A stretch of 63,331 nt of DNA, filler included, from Licmophora abbreviata (Eukaryota), in NCBI GenBank assembly GCA_900291995.1. It is 13 parts of 13 records of this genome, joined end to end, with 100 filler letters (N's around TTAATTAATTAA, not from the genome) between each part and the next. Parts side by side here need not be neighbours in the genome. Positions count along the whole stretch, not along the records: positions 12,260 to 20,862 come from OLMU01003557.1; 12 more parts are not named here. One strand, written 5' to 3'. The notes below the pieces were generated by a model that was not told the origin of the DNA, searched no databases, and was given only the letters and a program-made list of their open reading frames with translations. This document shows, piece by piece, positions 1,501-20,600 of the stretch (within the stretch, counting starts at the first letter, position 1; every line of letters begins with the position of its first letter). The position numbers and the translations under genes are program-made.

Positions 1501-2173
1501 ATCAATGTTGCAGCTACTTGCTTACTTTCGCTAGAGAGAGCTCTCTAGTAGAGATTGGTAGTAGTGTTGAGCTCATCAGTAGATCGAACGGAAAGCGCAA
1601 GATCCTGGAAGGCGGTCTTTATGCTGGTTGGACACGGCAGAGCATGTGCTAGAGGCGGATCAAAAGATAGCTCGAGGTGGTCACGCGAGAGAAGATCTGG
1701 AACGAGCTGCGTCCTTTTGTCAGTTGCGGCTGGCCCATCAAGTTTGGCGACTCAGTTCAGGACAGTAGCCGCTACATACAACACTTTTTGGCCGCGCTTT
1801 TGGACAACATGGGAAGACGGCGAGAAGAAAAGGAGAGAACTAGGACACGACCAGGTGCTTGCTTTGCAGCTCATAGAGATCGCATACTAGCCAATCCTCG
1901 AAGCTTGTACATCACTACTCTGCAAACTAAGATTCTCTCCGACCATCTATACGGCAACGGACACGCGCTTTCTGACCAGACGAATGCGTCGTATACGGTA
2001 GAAAAGCTAGGAAAGAACATCATAAGTGAAAAGCAGAGCTCAACCAGAGTATTGTATGATACCAGTAGGCTAAGCATTACGTTCTTAGGTGGGTCAGTCA
2101 GCCGAGCACAAATCAACAAACAGACAGAACATCTTTCCTCATTGATCCGCCGGCCGGTCCATCCCCGTTCCGC

Positions 2174-2977
2174 TTAACGGTTACTCTTACTGACACGTTC
2201 GATTTCATCCTTCTTCTTGATGGCATAACTGTTGGACGATCCACGAGCCGCATTGATGAGCTCCTCGGCCAGGCACTCCGCCATGGTTTTCAAGTTTCGA
2301 AAGCTGGCTTCACGGGCGCCCGTAGCCAACAAATACAAAGCATAGTTGACACGACGGAACGGACTCATGTCGACAGCCTGTCGACGAACCACGCCGGCAC
2401 CACCAACACGCGTCGAGTCCTCTCGTGGTCCACTGTTGATAATGGCATCGACCACAACCTGAACTGGGTTTTGGTCCGTGAGGAGATGAATAATTTCGAG
2501 GGTGTGCTGAATGATACGACAAGCCATGAGCTTCTTTCCCGAGTTACGACCCTTCTTCATCAGGCAGCAAGCGAGACGCTCCACAATGGGACAGGAGGCC
2601 TTGCGGAAGCGTTTTTTCTGGTATCGTCCGGCCGTGTGCGGAAGGTACGTTGCATGGTCTCCCTTGCAAGCAATGTAGTCCTAAAGGGAAGACAGAATGA
2701 ATCAGCGTGAGCAAAGCATGTCTCCAAGGCTTCTCTGGTTACTATAGATCCATCCGCATCCTCCCGTAGACCGCCGTCCCAACAACAGGCTCGCCCAGTC
2801 AACACTCACCACCAGAGAAATGTCGCGAATCTCAATGTCGTCAAACGACCATTTTCCAAAGAGTTTCACTTCCGTGGCTCCGACAACAGGAACAAACTCC
2901 TCCTCCTCTTCTTCCACGACCTCCTCGGTTTCCTCTTCGACCTCGGCGGGGGCGATTTCTTCTTCGACGTCGGCCAT
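2174..2977 (-). CDS. RPS5: 40S ribosomal protein S5 (uS7); exons 2977-2810 and 2680-2174
   Basis: [25 protein letters not shown]...[22 protein letters not shown]...[10 protein letters not shown]...[25 protein letters not shown] intron 2809-2681 joins in frame. Acidic N-terminal extension. Confidence 0.97.
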
Positions 2978-3412
2978 GGTCAAGATTGCTTCTGGGTCAG
3001 GTGCTATGTCCAGCAGCCGTCCATTCGAAAAACAGCCTTACCGCTTACTCGAATTTCATACTGGAATGAGCACGTAGAAACTTCCGTTCATATGGGAATC
3101 AGGAATGTTGGAAGGCCATACAGACATACGGCCAATATTGAATATGGTGCGTTACGTCAGCCAACCGAGATTCCCGGTGACGTGTTTGGGTTTGGCGCGA
3201 AGGATTCGTGGTCGAAGGAAGCCAAATTCAAGCGTTCGGAGAACTCTCAAATCTTTGCTGTGTTGTTGTGGCACGATGGACCATATGATCTCAAACAGCT
3301 AGGAATATGGTGCATACGTACGAGAATCGAGGCACCGAAAAAGATATGAAGCTGCACATCCCGTTCATTTCCCTTACCGGTCACTTTTTGTTCCTTCTAA
3401 CACCGTGCAAAG

Positions 3413-8400: not shown

Positions 8401-8831
8401 TTGCGCGTCGTGGAAGCATGCTGATTCGTACTACTACCCGTAGTAGTCGTCGTAAAGACACTGCTGCTTACAACACTGGAAGTCGCTCTGTCGCGTCGAA
8501 AGAGTGTTGAGATGCCTGCTGTCAAATTGTGAAATGGAGAAGAGGAAGCTGTAGTCGTGGCAGTACTACCGGGTGGCATGTTGCTATCCGCAGTATAACT
8601 GCTCGCTCCAGCAACGCTATCGACAATGTCACCGCCGCCATCGGCAATAATATCACTCATGTCGCTGATGCTCTCATTGTTTCGGTTGTCGAGGGGCACA
8701 GTGGGTGGCAAGTAGTTACTATTGCCGCTTCCGGAGCGACCCTGCGGAGACTCATCCGGTCGACGCCGTCCCCAGCGACGACTGCCGCTGCTATTCAACG
8801 GATCTTTTTTGCGACCAAAAGAGGATGGCAT
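5421..8831 (-). CDS. Large membrane protein with C-terminal PrsW-family intramembrane metalloprotease domain and Cys-rich PLAC8-like segments
   Basis: 1136-aa ORF. VTEELCKY (EExxK), GLACAEN (xxxEN), HAL and LHGTFD (HxxxD) motifs lie in a multi-TM C-terminal half. CCGCVCKCWFQCMSICALAQEAREM resembles the PLAC8 C-terminal motif. Confidence 0.75.
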   Translation of the reverse strand: MPSSFGRKKDPLNSSGSRRWGRRRPDESPQGRSGSGNSNYLPPTVPLDNRNNESISDMSDIIADGGGDIVDSVAGASSYTADSNMPPGSTATTTASSSPFHNLTAGISTLFRRDRATSSVVSSSVFTTTTTGSSTNQHASTTRNTNTTKNNNDKKKNLLPRTPSSRLFYSDDVSSDDDSYQSRVSTMSQRRRDEEGDDDDEEDPTTATPAVKRYRGFSTSVKSLFLDESLVCAAMGCFGLLLSHRTEHLLQVRNDRRGGGEPTSPTSSTGRSNNRNAKPSNVLAIALLITWFLIATTFVVWGFGHGHYVDEFAEDETEEDYNPYDDDYYHDLYENGDDYDGYIYNYPNDDGTNRNNDNNNRWLHDTARTTTSDHHHDHKFHGICKLRDAQDLFWRPLLEFVRDEWDRSDDVKDDDWATMSDRALGTDDSSGSDSSSSSSSYSSSSSTYSSSYNDDSSSSSSSSYSSSYSSSSSSNNESNDKPEDDSSSSEQDWSNGNRDDGAIGAHIRTGLVLTFFIVLGVVGRRRRMRTRYAIARARAQEDHLYNASHLSKTQSTREDQYQGACGHTLLGCYPVDPPIEEVEEEEEFQVQDSANGFSLFGTKKKRQHGDCVSRGFSCLMAMCCGCVCKCWFQCMSICALAQEAREMRVLVPPKYQRIDFITLQPFSDYQRNVNDLRRGWLGKMRRKVGISPHWHALSQLSRIILVGFSCTFLAILLTLVFNPRASFSWNDAIVLTATFAQSFLVLYVVFWIFHKSDLSLDAVIKFFAAGFLMAAPAAFIFEGLLVNMILAISYWIYMVAEMIRGEAFGDWVVTHYRSIWMVGELINAYVVAAVTEELCKYYTFRSVEHPDLIFLTGLDRKAQDESAVQGGLVNYPYGGHQVSELNRANSFGSEYSHRNIHLKRSKKHREGDDYSTSMRSAKTEDEFFEDESDARTFRQKAMAITTGMISVAVGLACAENFLYVFIFGGTASSGDGSGILQEWIVLFFRSVFPIHALSAAMQSINMIRKFVECGDDNSHRIGVGRIILPAVVLHGTFDAILLSINVYVESAWDDYREEHGDNVEEGVEPYNALVLNLVAWIGIIAIMLLGMIWYYRENRSQRLRLILLEEQDKAVSDIPYKSPKGAGKERQELELV

Positions 8832-9493
8832 GGTCGTGGATTGAACGCAAGCAAGCGATCAAAAGAAACACAAGAAGATACTCTCTCTAACAGGTCGGGG
8901 TCGGTCCTTACAGTCTGGATTGTGGGTTGTTGTGCTTTTGGTTTGCCTTTTTCGTGTTGATGCGGCTCGCCGAATTTGGATTTGCAGATCTTTGGTTTGG
9001 ATACCACAATGACAGAAATCCGTGTATAAGTAGCCATACAACATTAAATAATTTCAACGGATATACTATATGTCATTCTGTTATTTCAAACCTAAGCTAC
9101 TTACATTGGATCGCATCAATGGCTAAATAATCATATCCCCTGTGGCGAAACCTCGAGCACGCGCGCCGCGACTCATGGAAGGCCAATCATTCAATGGTCT
9201 AAATATATTAATAAAAATACACCTTCGCTGGCTCTTGCCGCCCCGCGTGTGTTTCGTGTGGCTAAACTTGAATCAAAATTCAACCAAAATCAAGCGGGAG
9301 CACGCCGTGCATCAGCATAACCTCTACATAAATAACAAGCATCTATCTCCCTTGTTGTTGTAGTTGTACTTGTGACACAGCGTGACAGCAACTGGTCTCG
9401 TGAAGGTCCTGCATCCCCGCTACGCTAGCTCAAAGGCACAGAGTAGAAGTAACGGGACGGCTCGTAGATAGCCGACGTTCTCTTTTCATCAAG

Positions 9494-14261: not shown

Positions 14262-15598
14262 ATGATGTTTTGGCTCGTGGTGGTTGGCCTTCTTCTTGTA
14301 TCCTGCTGCTCCAACGTAGTATCGTCATCATGCACGCCATCCTCATCTCCAGTACGGATGCTGTCACCGTCAAGACGACGGCTGATGGAGCAGTCTCGAG
14401 ACTATCACGACCCATCGCAACGACAACACTACAGCAGTGACAACGCGAGGACTACGACACTGTCGCAAGCATCACTCGCTAGTTGCAGAAGAAGAAAAGT
14501 ATGGAACATCCGAGGTGGTGGCAGTGCGGCTTCTAAGAGCTCACCCAGTACTAAGAATTCTGCTGCTGCTTCTAGTACTCGTGCTTCCCTCCTCATGATT
14601 GGACTCAAGAACAGTTTGGCCAGTAGCTTGGCAGCCGCCTGTAGCAAGACGATACTGGCACCCTTTGATACCATCAAGACCATGCAGCAGTACTATTTCA
14701 AAAGCAGCGGTCAGTCCTTGTCGCTGGTACAAGTCACGCGTATGATACTTGAACGACCGGCGGGATTCTACGAACTCTATGTGAGTGAATTTTGACATGT
14801 TATGTGAGGTTTGAATGAACAAACAGTGTGACTAACGACGACGATGTGAAATGTTCTCCTACAATACTCACTACAAAACAGGCTGGATTGGGAGTTGCGG
14901 TAGTCGGTGCCATGCCCTCGGTGGGTCTATACTTTGGCGTCTATTCCTACTGCAAACGAGTGTTGGTGCCGTATTTACAAGACAAATCACATCAGTATCA
15001 ACTGCCCGTCTCGGAAAAGGTAATTTGGACGACTTCCATTGCCGCTTCGGCAGCCATTGGAAATACCGTAGCATCCTTTTCACGAGTACCCTACGAGGTG
15101 GTCAAGCAAAAGTTGCAAACGGGAATGTATGACACTACGTGGCACGCGATTCGAGACATGGCAAGCACTAATGGATGGAGGGCCTTCTTTCCCATGGGCG
15201 GAGTGTCGATTCAAATGTGGAGGGATATTCCTTATGCTATTGTTACATTATTGTCGTACGAACAGCTGCGAGAATCGTTTGTCAAACCTTACAAGGAACG
15301 CAACCCAGATTCCTCGTCATGGTGTGACATGGTGGCTGGGGCCGTGGCGGGAGGTATTGGGAGCTATGTGACAAACCCAATGGACGTTGTTAAGACTAGA
15401 ATACAAACGAACCCAAAACTCTATGGGGGTTCGATTTCCAAGTGCGCACGAATGACGTTCCAAGAAGGAGGAGCCATGGCCTTCCTGCGTGGCAGTGTTC
15501 CAAGGCTGCTTCACAAGATTCCGGCGAATGGGTTCTTCTTTTTGTTTTACGAGTTCTTTGGACGACTCTTACAAGTCGACACTGTTGAAGAGGTCTAG
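14262..15598 (+). CDS. Mitochondrial carrier family (SLC25) protein, SAM-carrier-like, with N-terminal signal peptide; intron 14781-14881
   Basis: Three Px[DE]xx[KR] signatures: APFDTIKT, VPYEVVKQKLQ, NPMDVVKTRIQ. WRDIPY resembles the SAM-carrier R[DE]IP motif. Phase-0 GT-AG intron. Confidence 0.85.
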
Positions 15599-16084
15599 AG
15601 AGAAAGAGAAGACGACTTGGCTCAGAAGCGAGTTTGCGACTGTGCTCCTGATAAATAGCCGTATCGTAACACATAGGGCGAAGAGCTAGGAGGCGTCTCG
15701 TGGCCAATACTGGTACGGGTACCAGGTTAGAGTGGTCATATCGTAGACCCGAATCTTGCTCTACCAAAACGATGGTGTCAAACATGAGAAACCGGCAGCC
15801 TCGATACTGTGGCTGGCCAAGGACGATATGTGCACTTCACGTCAATGTATCGGCGAGTTGGGCACATCTGTACCTATGCGACATAGTCTACCGTATCGTA
15901 ACATCCAGCACCCGGTTCTGGCTGCCAGTTGTGTCTCTGGCTCTGGATCTCTAAGCACTCCTGCTTCACCTTGCTCTCTAGCTACGACGATGACAACCAC
16001 AGAGAAAGCGACTTTTTGATGACTTAGCAAGAACCATCTACTATCAGCAGCTTTGCCTCCTGTGAAGTAATGGCTGTAGAACAT

Positions 16085-16144
16085 CGGCGGCGTCAGGGGC
16101 ATCTGTACGACATCGTATGTCTCAAGACCCCGTCATCCCCGCCG
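16085..16144 (-). promoter_or_regulatory. Candidate SECIS element (type II-like) in the 3' UTR of the SelU-like gene
   Basis: Minus strand reads CGGCGG-GG-AUGAC-GGGGUCUUG-AGACA-UACG(AUGU)CGUA-CAGAUGCCCC-UGAC-G-CCGCCG. It has helix I, an AUGA/GA kink-turn core, helix II and an apical mini-helix, and lies about 40 nt after the stop codon. Confidence 0.75.
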
Positions 16145-16183
16145 GCATCCCAACAGATCTTGTTGTTGTCAACAGTTCCCAAG

Positions 16184-16900
16184 TTACTTTTCTTGTCGTT
16201 TTTGTTCTTCTCGTTTCAAGGCAATCACAGCTGCCAGTATATCACGGACAGGCAAGTCTGTTCCGGTCTCTTCTTCGTATGCATATCGCGGTTTGCCTTC
16301 TGTATCAAACACAATGATACCCCCCTGTACAATCCCCTCTCCTTTAAAGTTTCCAGCGATTCCTTTTGTTTTTATTCGATTGTACGAATCACACAGAAAG
16401 GACACAATTGACATTGGATTCAACATGGCGAAGCTAGGTCTGACCCGTCGATCGCCCAAGGCTGAATAGAACGCGTAGGACTTGTCGACATACAATGGAT
16501 ACGAAAAGTAGTCTCCATGAAACTCGCAGACTCCCTCATCGTCGACGCCAGTCTCTTTAATGACCCCAAAGATCCCAAATCCTTTGAAATCTTCTTGTCT
16601 CTGCGCCGCGAGCACCGCTAATGACATGGCTTGCTCGCGGCAGAAGAATCAGCCTGCGAATATGGTAGTGGAACAGGACGAGTATACGAAATTTCCACAA
16701 CGATGCGACACATCATGAGTATACACCAACACAAAACCAAAATTGCACCGCCATCAGGAAGACTCACCCGGTCGACGAATGACACATCCAATACTCCCAG
16801 TTCCCTTGCTGTGGCGTAGAATCATTTCACGGCCACGTACGACATCGACTTCGCGGAGCATGTTGGTGCTGTTTTCTGAATCTACTTGAATTTCGACCAT
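16184..16900 (-). CDS. Selenoprotein U / peroxiredoxin-like 2 (AhpC-TSA_2) family selenoprotein, UxxC; exons 16900-16768 and 16653-16184; a further upstream exon is possible
   Basis: Splicing GT-AG intron 16767-16654 gives IGCVIRRPG-TGA-FFCREQAMSL with TGA at 16651-16649, matching the SelU RRPG[U/C]xxCRE motif. Downstream YPLYVDKSYAFYSALG and GEGIVQGGIIVF are typical of the family. Confidence 0.88.
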
Positions 16901-17616
16901 CTAACAAATGGACATATCGAGAGAATAGCACGAGCGAGAAACAATGAGCAAAGCGTGCCCTCGAAGACATACATAGGAAACTACCTTCGCTTGATACACA
17001 CCGTCGAATCCCCGAGACGCGCACTCCTCATGGTGGGCGAGAGATTCATGTACTCGGGCACCTCCATCTCTGCGTCATCCGAGATGCTGCTGAGTTCCGA
17101 CGTCACTGCCTCAATGACTTTGGGAGGAAAGACTCGTCTGGCACAGGACATGATGAGAGAGTCTTCAATGGATCAATGGTCAACGGTCCCGGAGGAGGCT
17201 GTGGTCGCTTGGTGACCATTTGACATCACTAGAAAGCACAGGTTGAATTTGAGGTTGCGACGCAAAGCTCCGACTATCATTTCGAACGATTGCCGGCTCG
17301 CAGGATTGCGCGGGAAAATTGAGTATAGCGAAAACAGGGGAGTCAACAGTGTAATAGTAATACATGTCTTTATACCGATATTGACATTGATTTTCAGAAC
17401 GACGTGAGTATAGAGATTGTGGCAGAGCCATATATTAAGATACCCTCCTACTCTTATTGCCTGAAGTCCATGTGAGTACCGCTTCGAAGGCAACTCCCAG
17501 TTTCATCAAGTTCCAAAAGGAGAAAAATCAACAAAAATTGTGTGAACCATCTTAGACTACGCCGGTTCGTTCACAACAACAGGTACTGCATTTAAAATAA
17601 GTAGTTCTCAAGCAGG

Positions 17617-20600
17617 ATGACGATGGAAGTCGACGAAAACGTGGTATCCTCGACGGCCAACTATGTCTATGTGCTGTCGGACGATCAAGCATGGATCCCA
17701 GTGCGTGTCATTTCCATGAGCGAGAATGGCGAGGTGCAAGTTGCTTCGTACGGCAATGAAGTGAACAACGTCCAGTCTGACGACGGCAGCAAAGACTCGC
17801 CAGAAATTGAGGCATCCCATACTGTCATCCGACTCTCACAGTATCCTAACCGAACGCTTCCACTGCAGAACGTAGATGAGAATGGAAGTCTCAGAGAAGT
17901 AGAAGACTGCTCGAAGCTTCCTTTTTTACACGAGGTAAGAGAAAGATTTTCCAGTGCCGAATTGCCGGAAGCCGCACCTCAGCTCATTACCGCACCTTCT
18001 CGACTGTTTGTTCCGCAGGCTGCCATCTTGTACAACATCAAGGCACGACATGCTCGTGCGCAGCCCTATACCCGATGTGGCGACATTGTGCTGGCTGTAA
18101 ACCCATATCAGGTAACTCACTGTATGCAGGATTCGTAGGCTTGCACGACGAGTCTTTCCTCTCACATCGGATACCTCTATTGCTTTCTATTGCGTGTTCA
18201 GTGGCTAAATGATCTCTATTCCGACGCAAGGAGACGGGCCTATGGCAGGGCGTTGGTATGGGAGGGTGAGTACAACAATGCCACGGTCGTGTTACGTACG
18301 CACGAGTTCCGTCAGCACCATCTCACAATGCCCCTCACACGTAATTATAACGCACAGCCGCTTCGTTTGAAGGGGATCCTCGTTCGCAGGTGGAACCCCA
18401 CGTCTACGAGATATCGGCACTGAGCTATCGCGGATTGGCCGTCGAGGGACAAAATCAATCCATTCTCGTGAGCGGCGAGAGTGGTGCCGGAAAGACAGAG
18501 ACTGTTAAGATTCTACTGTCGCACTTGGCAAGTGTGCAAGCGCGATCACACCACCCAGATGAAAATGGTGCTCGAACGTCGTTGATTGTTAAGCGTGTCG
18601 TCGACTCGAATCCTCTGCTAGAGGCCTTTGGGAATGCAAAGACGATACGCAACGACAACTCGAGCCGGTTCGGCAAGTTTTTGCAGCTCCAGTTTGATGC
18701 CGAAGATCCCACCATCGCAAGCTACAAGGGAAAGGCCATCGCAGACTGCGTCTTGGCTGGATCCAAGTGCGACGTCTATCTTCTAGAAAAGAGTCGTGTG
18801 GTGGGGCACGAAGACAGAGAACGGACGTACCATATCTTCTACCAGTTGCTCGCCGCACCGAACGAGTTCAAGGCTCAGGTCTGGGATGGACTCGTCAATA
18901 CCGACAATGAGTCATTCGCGTATGTGGGTTGGAGTGACACGAAGGAGATCGAAGGCATGACGGATCAGAAACGATTTCGGCAAACTTGCGATGCTTTGGA
19001 ACTCATAGGCGTCAAGGACGAATCCTTGTTGACGCTTATGCGAGCCATTTGTATCGTCATGCAGCTTGGTAATTTGGTGTTCGAGGAAGACACCAATGAT
19101 GAGGAACGATCGGAGATTGTGACCAAAAAAGAGTTGACGGGTCTGTCAGAGTTGATGGGTGTTCACGAGGTCGAGCTGAGCGCCTGTCTGACCACTCGTA
19201 CCATCAAGGCAGGTGGAGAAGAATACAAGGTCCCGTTGAACGCCGTCAAGTCCAAGGATTCGTGCGATGCGTTTGCAAAGGAGATCTATGCAAGGGTGTT
19301 CCTCTGGTTAGTTCGGACGATCAACAACGCAACGTGCGCTGAGATGAATTACGAGGGTAATGAGGGGCGCGACTTTGGCCTCATTGGCCTGCTGGATATC
19401 TTTGGTAAGACTTGAACGGGCACGCCTGGTATGGCTCTCACTCGTTTTTGCTCGTATTCTGACGGTTCCCTACTTGATTCGATTCATGTAGGTTTCGAGA
19501 GTTTCGTGACAAACCGCTTCGAACAACTTTGCATCAACTACGCCAACGAGAAACTTCAGCAAAAGTTTACCAATGACGTGTTTCGATCGGTCAAACAAGA
19601 GTATGAATTTGAAGGTATAGAGCTGGCCGAGATAACCTTTGCTGACAACCAGAAGGTTTTAAGCTTGATTGAGGGTACAACAGGACTCATCTCGATCTTG
19701 AACGAGGAGTGCGTCCGTCCAAAGGGAAACGATTCAGCGTTTGTTTCAAAAGCCAAATCTTCAAACAAACAATCCGACTGTCTGATCTCCAAGAGGAATT
19801 TTCACGAATACGAGTTCGGTATTCAACACTATGCAGGATCAGTTCTCTATAACGCAAATGGCTTTGTCACGAAGAATACCGATGGAATTGCACCAGATTT
19901 AGTTCAATGTGCGAAGAATTCTATCAATGACATTCTCCGCCGTGAGATAGACAGCGATGATAGCCCAAGTCCGTCGATGAAGTCACAAAAGGCTCCATCA
20001 ACACGGAGACTTTTCCGCAGGAAGAGTTCTATTGTGGCCGAGACCGTCTGGACGAAGTTCCGCTACCAGCTCGTTTCTCTCATGCAGAATTTGTCTCAAA
20101 CCAGGACTCGTTACATTCGTTGTATCAAGCCCAACACTGTCACCAAACCGTTGCTGATGCAAAATGTGTCTACTGTAGAACAGCTTCGATGTGCTGGCGT
20201 GGTGGCAGCTGTTACAATTTCTCGGTCGGCGTTCCCCAATAGGGTTGAACACGACGACGTCCTAAGGCGATTCAGGTCTCTTTGGACCAAGGGAAATGAA
20301 CGGATTTCTGCAGAGAGCCCCGAGTCTGCGAATCCCGGCGACGAAGTCCGTCGTGACGTCGACCGTCTCCTAACGCCAGTGTTGCGTGAACGTGAAACAA
20401 CAAAACAAGGAACAATCGTCAAAGCGTTCGTGATTGGCAAAACTCGGACATACTTCCGCACGGGAGCTCTCGAGCACATGGAAGCAGCGCGACTGAGCGG
20501 TCTTGGAGATAGCGCCACAACGATGCAGAGTGCCGTTCGCGGACATCTTGCGCGTCGTCTCGCTGGCCGTAGAGTCGATGCATGCGCTGTATTGCAGTGC

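Follow-up and report, generated by a model that had tools for sequence, protein, structure and literature searches.

A spliced SelU-type gene of Licmophora abbreviata with an in-frame TGA predicted to encode selenocysteine

The minus strand of the window, by which we mean the whole 63,331-nucleotide stretch of DNA analysed here, carries at 17151–16184 what is best explained as a nuclear gene of three exons from a diatom-like eukaryote, which is predicted to code for a thioredoxin-fold oxidoreductase of about 250 residues. The predicted product is a member of the SelU / peroxiredoxin-like 2 (PRXL2, FAM213) family, in which one in-frame UGA, at 16651–16649, would be recoded as selenocysteine (Sec), and we consider it very probable that this Sec-encoding SelU gene is a genuine feature. 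Three observations carry this reading: a splice-compatible gene structure, the family membership of the product, and a TGA that is conserved while coding sequence is kept on both its sides. From there we infer Sec insertion, the identity of the hairpin that would direct it and the kind of substrate.

Exons, introns and reading frame

Exon 1 (17002..17151, minus strand) comprises 50 codons. Its reading frame opens with the ATG at 17151–17149 (MSCARRVF...; MSCARRVFPPKVIEAV...) and closes in phase 0 with ...TCG ACG, the boundary with the donor GTGTGT falling at 17002/17001; its product shows 34% identity to residues 1–48 of the database homolog P0014 (E 1e-06). Intron 1 (16901..17001, minus strand; 101 nt) is of the GT..AG type and runs from GTGTGTAT... 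to ...TTGTTAG, and the exon-joining script gave phase 0 for the junction of 17002 to 16900. In P0014, a 31-residue in-frame insert sits exactly between the segments matching exons 1 and 2; this insert would be a translated intron, at a position equal to that of intron 1. Exon 2 (16768..16900, minus strand) encodes MVEIQVDSEN...GSIGCVIRRP plus the first base of a Gly codon, its 3′ end reading ATT CGT CGA CCG G, and matches P0014 residues 80–121 (E 3e-08). An ATG also stands at 16900, where it abuts the intron acceptor TTGTTAG, and the predicted start codon is the upstream ATG of exon 1, not this one.

Intron 2 (16654..16767, minus strand; 114 nt, GTGAGTCT...ATTCGCAG) is in phase 1 and falls within the Gly codon just before the TGA. 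Its donor GTGAGT occupies 16767–16762, and its 3′ end is ...TTCGCAG, with the AG at 16655–16654. Exon 3 (16184..16653, minus strand) begins GC TGA TTC TTC TGC CGC GAG CAA GCC ATG; it thus supplies GC, the TGA and then FFCREQAMSLAVL...KRQEK, ends with a TAA stop (16186–16184) and contains the AhpC-TSA_2 domain. The first-pass annotation had seen TGA-TTC-TTC-TGC-CGC-GAG two bases after an AG acceptor and had proposed that joining the GTGAGT donor at 16767 to this acceptor yields VIRRPG-U-FFCREQA. Both statements hold: the TGA lies at 16651–16649, directly after the two bases that follow the AG, and the script found the junction in frame, with the exon 2/exon 3 boundary translating as GCVIRRPG*FFCREQAM. 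The joined coding sequence measures 753 nt, a multiple of 3, and its stop codons are the single internal TGA and the terminal TAA.

By comparative alignment, the in-frame TGA (16649..16651, minus strand) would be the selenocysteine codon, the U of a U-F-F-C redox motif. The TGC at 16640..16642 (minus strand), identified from the sequence and its translation, encodes the Cys of the UxxC motif that would act as the resolving residue. It was also correctly noted earlier that the ORF track opens this protein at an internal Met (MSLAVL): the stop-to-stop ORF 16184–16648 opens FFCREQAMSLAVL, and the next ATG beyond the TGA lies at 16627. Two other ways of reading the exon 2/exon 3 region were ruled out. 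Retention of intron 2 gives the translation RRPGESS-stop; and the next downstream AG, within CGCGAG, used as the acceptor, loses the frame of exon 3, as worked out by hand.

The gene has a convergent neighbour, a mitochondrial carrier gene at 14819–15598 on the plus strand (Pfam Mito_carr, E 1e-38), and a divergent one, a myosin gene (Myosin_head), also on the plus strand, from about 17605. Since the carrier stop codon lies at 15598, the 3′ UTR of the SelU gene can measure at most 584 nt. Public contigs of the sequencing run X1, 95–99% alike, align at 15900–16074 and 16148–16333 of the window, in the UTR and the C-terminal coding part, and none of them spans a splice junction; relative to the window they show an A>G change at 15995 and have 3 bases deleted at 16160, immediately 5′ to helix I of the hairpin described below. 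These differences suggest a related strain or allele within the public data. Runs X2 and X3, from the same study, gave no contigs matching the locus.

Family assignment and conservation of the TGA codon

The product of exon 3 matches Pfam AhpC-TSA_2 (PF13911) over residues 19–128 (E 2.5e-18; 66.9 bits, the cutoff being 27). Of the 64 homologs that a database search yielded, every one has PF13911, and the best is 70% identical. Those that carry a species name are all from diatoms, namely Amphora coffeaeformis, Entomoneis paludosa and Thalassiosira oceanica; the diatom relative P0055, the Entomoneis paludosa entry, bears the UniRef label 'Redox-regulatory protein FAM213A'. The closest solved structure by sequence is prostamide/prostaglandin F synthase (PDB 9us9, E 1.2e-10 with the family profile), whose RRFGCVVCR aligns with RRPG-U-FFCR of the window protein, its first Cys standing opposite the TGA. 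In three database homologs the TGA column is occupied by Cys: P0014 (RRPGCFFCR), P0030 (RRPGCYLCR) and P0065 (RRPGCYFCR). The PF13911 domain, together with the (C/U)xxC placed directly after the RRPG strand, assigns the predicted product unambiguously to the SelU/PRXL2 family, as had been proposed from the RRPG[C/U]xxCRE motif.

The TGA was then compared across 80 related loci taken from metagenome contigs, with protein identities of 38–59%. The search patterns were based on the C-terminal portion of the protein, hence they were blind to the TGA codon. Eight of the 80 loci were left unassessed, either as the match begins at residue 12 or later or as the contig end is too near. All 72 assessable loci have TGA at the homologous codon (71 directly and L047 after splicing), and none has TGC or TGT; the question of whether orthologs carry UGA or Cys at this codon is answered by these 72 loci and by the three Cys homologs named above. 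Directly upstream, (V/I)RR(P/A)G is read in frame in 70 of the 71 loci with an unsplit TGA, and xxCRE follows downstream; a single assessable locus of the 72, L077, which reads PLVRGD, lacks the C of xxCRE. Poly(A) tails, a possible sign of cDNA, were present on the contigs of 1 of the 80 loci, which is uninformative.

The two loci without a direct upstream read, L006 and L047, have an intron there. The L006 intron is identical in position and phase to intron 2 of the window gene (CCT G|GTACGC...GTAG|GA TGA). The L047 intron (L047:2387–2520) splits the codon itself as TG|A (GGG TG|GTAAGT...AATAG|A GTT TTG TGC), and splicing rebuilds the TGA. In L047 the TGA is therefore present in the spliced mRNA only, so that scans of genomic DNA for an in-frame TGA would miss this locus.

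Upstream of the TGA, the 94 codons of exons 1 and 2 are conserved as protein, as the two exon matches to P0014 show. Coding conservation on both sides of a conserved stop is accepted as the comparative hallmark of recoding. The TGA conserved in 72 of 72 loci and the coding conservation that flanks it are thus the basis on which the UGA at 16651–16649 is read as recoded to selenocysteine, which agrees with the earlier proposal, Sec incorporation as such being predicted from the alignment.

The TGA might instead stem from faulty sequencing or assembly, or from a mutation of TGC or TGT in this strain, and the real gene be an ordinary Cys-type PRXL2. Cys forms do exist in the family (P0014, P0030 and P0065), and both segments covered by the X1 contigs (15900–16074 and 16148–16333) lie outside the TGA codon. 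Against this, TGA occurs independently in 72 of 72 assessable relatives, TGC or TGT in 0 of 72, so that TGA is the state expected for the clade; we regard an error or private mutation as extremely improbable and retain the Sec codon.

Two other places in the window that resembled an ORF broken by TGA were rejected as Sec codons. The TGA-split pair of same-frame ORFs at 2069–3349 encodes no recognisable protein. The TGA at 19413–19415 on the plus strand, within 19200–19640, falls in an in-frame, stop-poor intron of the myosin-head gene; this intron (...LLDIFG|KT-TGA-TGTPG...HV|GFESF...) makes two long ORFs mimic one that is broken by a single TGA. In addition, a tRNA gene search of the window returned none.

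Hairpins in the 3′ UTR of the relatives and of the window gene

The 3′ regions were searched with a home-made SECIS descriptor, which asks for ATGA, for 7 or more pairs in helix II, for GA and for a helix I. Among the 78 relatives' loci with 80 nt or more of 3′ sequence, 40 contain a descriptor candidate, and the element of the relatives is found past the stop, on the coding strand. These candidates share the core GA-AUGA-C...U-UGA-(A/C)AA, which the descriptor does not demand; examples are L017:800–864, L062:893–981 and L040:1110–1191. The AA or CC at 10–13 nt past the quartet is missing in 21 of the 40, including the nearest relatives L001 and L005, whereas the members of one subgroup (CGGGAUCUCCUCCG) carry a CC at 11 nt.

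Two covariance models were built from the relatives, R1 (27 relatives, 6 bp) and R2 (51 relatives, 13 bp). Of 43 loci that were not used to train it, R1 recovers the coding-strand element in 29 (30 matches with E up to 1), some of these test loci being close kin of the training sequences; it reports no descriptor candidate in L005, L002 and L011. Across the 51 aligned sequences, pairing stands at 89% in helix II, where 6 of 6 pairs covary, and at 58% in helix I, and the true register reaches 72% against at most 51.5% in slid controls, figures that are flattered by the alignment having been fitted to the model. On this comparative evidence, the 3′-UTR kink-turn hairpin of the SelU relatives is real. 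Rfam found a SECIS match in none of 20 related loci, and its negative result in the window (no SECIS match with E up to 10 at 15000–17600) therefore says little.

In the window gene, folding and the descriptor pointed to just one element comparable to those of the relatives, a 3′-UTR hairpin at 16074..16156 (minus strand) that is a candidate SECIS. Its sequence is GGCGGGG-AUGA-CGGGGUCUUGAGACAUACGAUGUCGUACAGAUGCCCC-UGA-CGCCGCC, with the AUGA at 16136–16133, 47 nt past the stop, and the partner GA at 16094–16093. Helix I is long, with CGGCGG/CCGCCG as its GC-rich core; helix II opens with GGGG/CCCC; and the apex consists of one unpaired A (16122), 10 nt past the quartet, and a mini-stem of 5 bp closed by the loop ACG. 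Neither AA nor CC occurs 10–13 nt past the quartet of this candidate. The ATGAC...TGA core is alike in the window candidate and in the 3′ UTRs of the relatives. With the quartet forced open, the energies are −34.2 kcal/mol for the whole hairpin and −11.6 for the upper stem, and both pass the cut-offs of −12.6 and −3.7 given in the accessible part of PMC2375036.

The whole-hairpin stability of the candidate is unremarkable (z −1.81; 12 of 200 shuffles fold equally well). In its favour, its descriptor score of 16 is reached by 9, 34 and 37 of 1000 dinucleotide shuffles for lengths of 200, 400 and 584 nt, respectively, and by 15 of the 684 ATGA sites on both strands of the window, 2 of these 15 also having ATGAC and T-GA. 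The published primary SECIS pattern, searched over 784 nt past the stop (to 15400), has one match, which pairs at 4 of 10 positions and lies within the neighbouring gene.

Searched over the window, R1 gave no match with default filters, and with the filters off the candidate was absent from its 12 matches with E up to 10; it was absent as well from the 8 matches of R2. When the search was confined to the 584-nt UTR, R1 ranked the candidate top, yet with 2.0 bits and E 0.95, and R2 gave it 2.9 bits in the UTR region with the wrong pairing. The window element is GC-rich (0.62) and the training set of the models is AT-rich. Local alignment of the 3′ UTRs placed the best block between the window and L001 in the 3′ arms of both candidates, at a score that 11 of 200 shuffles equalled, and found nothing between the window and five other relatives. 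Elsewhere in the window, the best R2 match, at 9042–9088 on the minus strand (14.4 bits, E 0.24), was dismissed as probably due to chance, with no stable fold (z 0.21); it reads GAAUGACA...UUGAAA, its middle is only 13 nt long and its helix I is AU-rich. A descriptor match at 8660 on the minus strand, with a score of 22, was dismissed as lying, by eye, within apparent coding sequence.

We lean towards the hairpin at 16156–16074 as the SECIS of this gene, and regard it as probable rather than established. If it is, it would be an unusual one, GC-rich, with one unpaired A where the AA/CC apical motif would stand, and invisible to Rfam, R1 and R2. A relaxed or lineage-specific apical requirement in diatom-like stramenopiles could be behind this; the suggestion is tentative, and we place it somewhat below an even chance. 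It follows from taking the UGA as Sec and from the fact that about half of the relatives' candidates are without the canonical AA/CC.

The hairpins also bear on the possibility that the UGA is decoded, though not as Sec, either through near-cognate tRNA readthrough as Cys or Trp or through UGA being generally a sense codon. The homolog P0052 is written with W at the TGA position (RRPGWVLCR), and SECIS support in the window is moderate, both in favour of such decoding. On the other hand, TGA terminates 21 of the 47 ORFs of at least 200 codons in the window, one of 1394 codons included, which argues against a genome-wide reassignment of TGA; the W of P0052 would be explained more simply as a translation-table artefact of the record; and the conserved AUGA...GA hairpin found after the stop in the relatives makes sense for Sec insertion only. 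Diatoms are in addition documented users of Sec, SelU included, according to the accessible part of PMC2375036. Decoding as another amino acid is thus exceedingly unlikely, and selenocysteine remains the preferred reading of this codon.

A mechanism can be proposed for the gene product. During translation the UGA at 16651–16649 would be read as selenocysteine, the 3′-UTR SECIS hairpin, for which 16156–16074 is the best candidate, recruiting SBP2, eEFSec and Sec-tRNA[Ser]Sec by the standard eukaryotic route. The active site would be Sec-Phe-Phe-Cys, straight after the conserved VIRRPG strand. Its selenolate would attack an oxidised substrate, for instance a peroxide, an endoperoxide or a disulfide; the intermediate would be resolved by the Cys three positions further along, giving a selenenylsulfide that cellular thiol systems would then reduce.

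Database annotation and comparison with known systems

Among the 64 database homologs, the motif RRPG-C-xxC is intact in just 3; P0052 has W in it, P0046 has residues missing within it, and it is absent from the other 59. In many of these 59, the first residue is the equivalent Met or the one that immediately follows the TGA. One could take from such entries that the TGA is a true stop, and that the locus is a decaying pseudogene or encodes only the C-terminal protein of 147 residues from Met 16627, without the redox motif. The truncated annotation of most relatives, with the motif missing in 59 of 64, would fit a true stop, as would the fact that R1 and R2 do not confirm the SECIS candidate of the window. 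However, truncated entries are also the artefact expected of gene callers that take TGA as a stop; the 94 codons upstream of it are conserved with homologs; and all 72 assessable relatives, even those at 38% identity, retain the TGA along with the upstream (V/I)RR(P/A)G frame, which is unexpected for a dead stop. A true stop is accordingly very unlikely in our judgement.

With the UGA read as Sec, ordinary gene calling cuts the window gene at its catalytic residue, and the same error runs across public protein collections, which bears out the first-pass annotation in its expectation that standard callers truncate the gene and lose the active site. P0058 (NCBI THAOC_12266, from T. oceanica) and P0003–P0007 start at the internal Met or just past the UGA, for instance with MSLAVLAA..., MCREHG... 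or LCREHG..., and appear to be truncated selenoprotein models; P0003–P0007 are the closest database relatives, at 65–70% identity. Correct models bear on estimates of the dependence of diatoms on selenium. Functional work on this SelU protein needs the full model, since the truncated form is without the active site. The gene itself adds one further member to a selenoprotein family that has already been described in a diatom, and will not surprise a specialist, whose interest could rest on the atypical apex of the SECIS candidates in this clade.

The original SelU paper is that of Castellano et al. 2004. In the accessible parts of later articles, SelU is described as a selenoprotein family whose Sec forms are scattered and which has Cys forms in mammals (PMC2375036; PMC3316567). 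The window protein has the AhpC-TSA_2 domain in common with this family, as well as the (U/C)xxC after RRPG, where Sec and Cys interchange at one column. Two traits set it apart: an N-terminal extension of about 95 residues, otherwise confined to its near diatom-like kin, P0014 among them, and a SECIS candidate without the AA/CC motif.

More distant is PRXL2B/FAM213B (PDB 9us9), a Cys enzyme whose CxxC (RRFGCVVCR) matches the UxxC site of the window protein; this distant similarity does not imply a shared reduction of prostaglandin endoperoxide. Among diatoms, the T. oceanica protein P0058 is merely 49% identical to the window protein and is annotated in truncated form. Newer work on diatom SelU did not come up in a literature search that was not exhaustive. 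The closest known system is that of Thalassiosira pseudonana, for which the accessible part of Lobanov et al. 2007 (PMC2375036) gives 16 selenoprotein genes, two SelU among them, and a sequenced Sec tRNA; a Sec-containing SelU in a diatom has therefore been in print since at least 2007, and the first-pass annotation was right that diatoms encode Sec by UGA. As described there, the T. pseudonana SelU genes are of the same family and from the same kind of organism as the window gene, and they use the mechanism proposed for it, a UGA for Sec together with a SECIS in the 3′ UTR.
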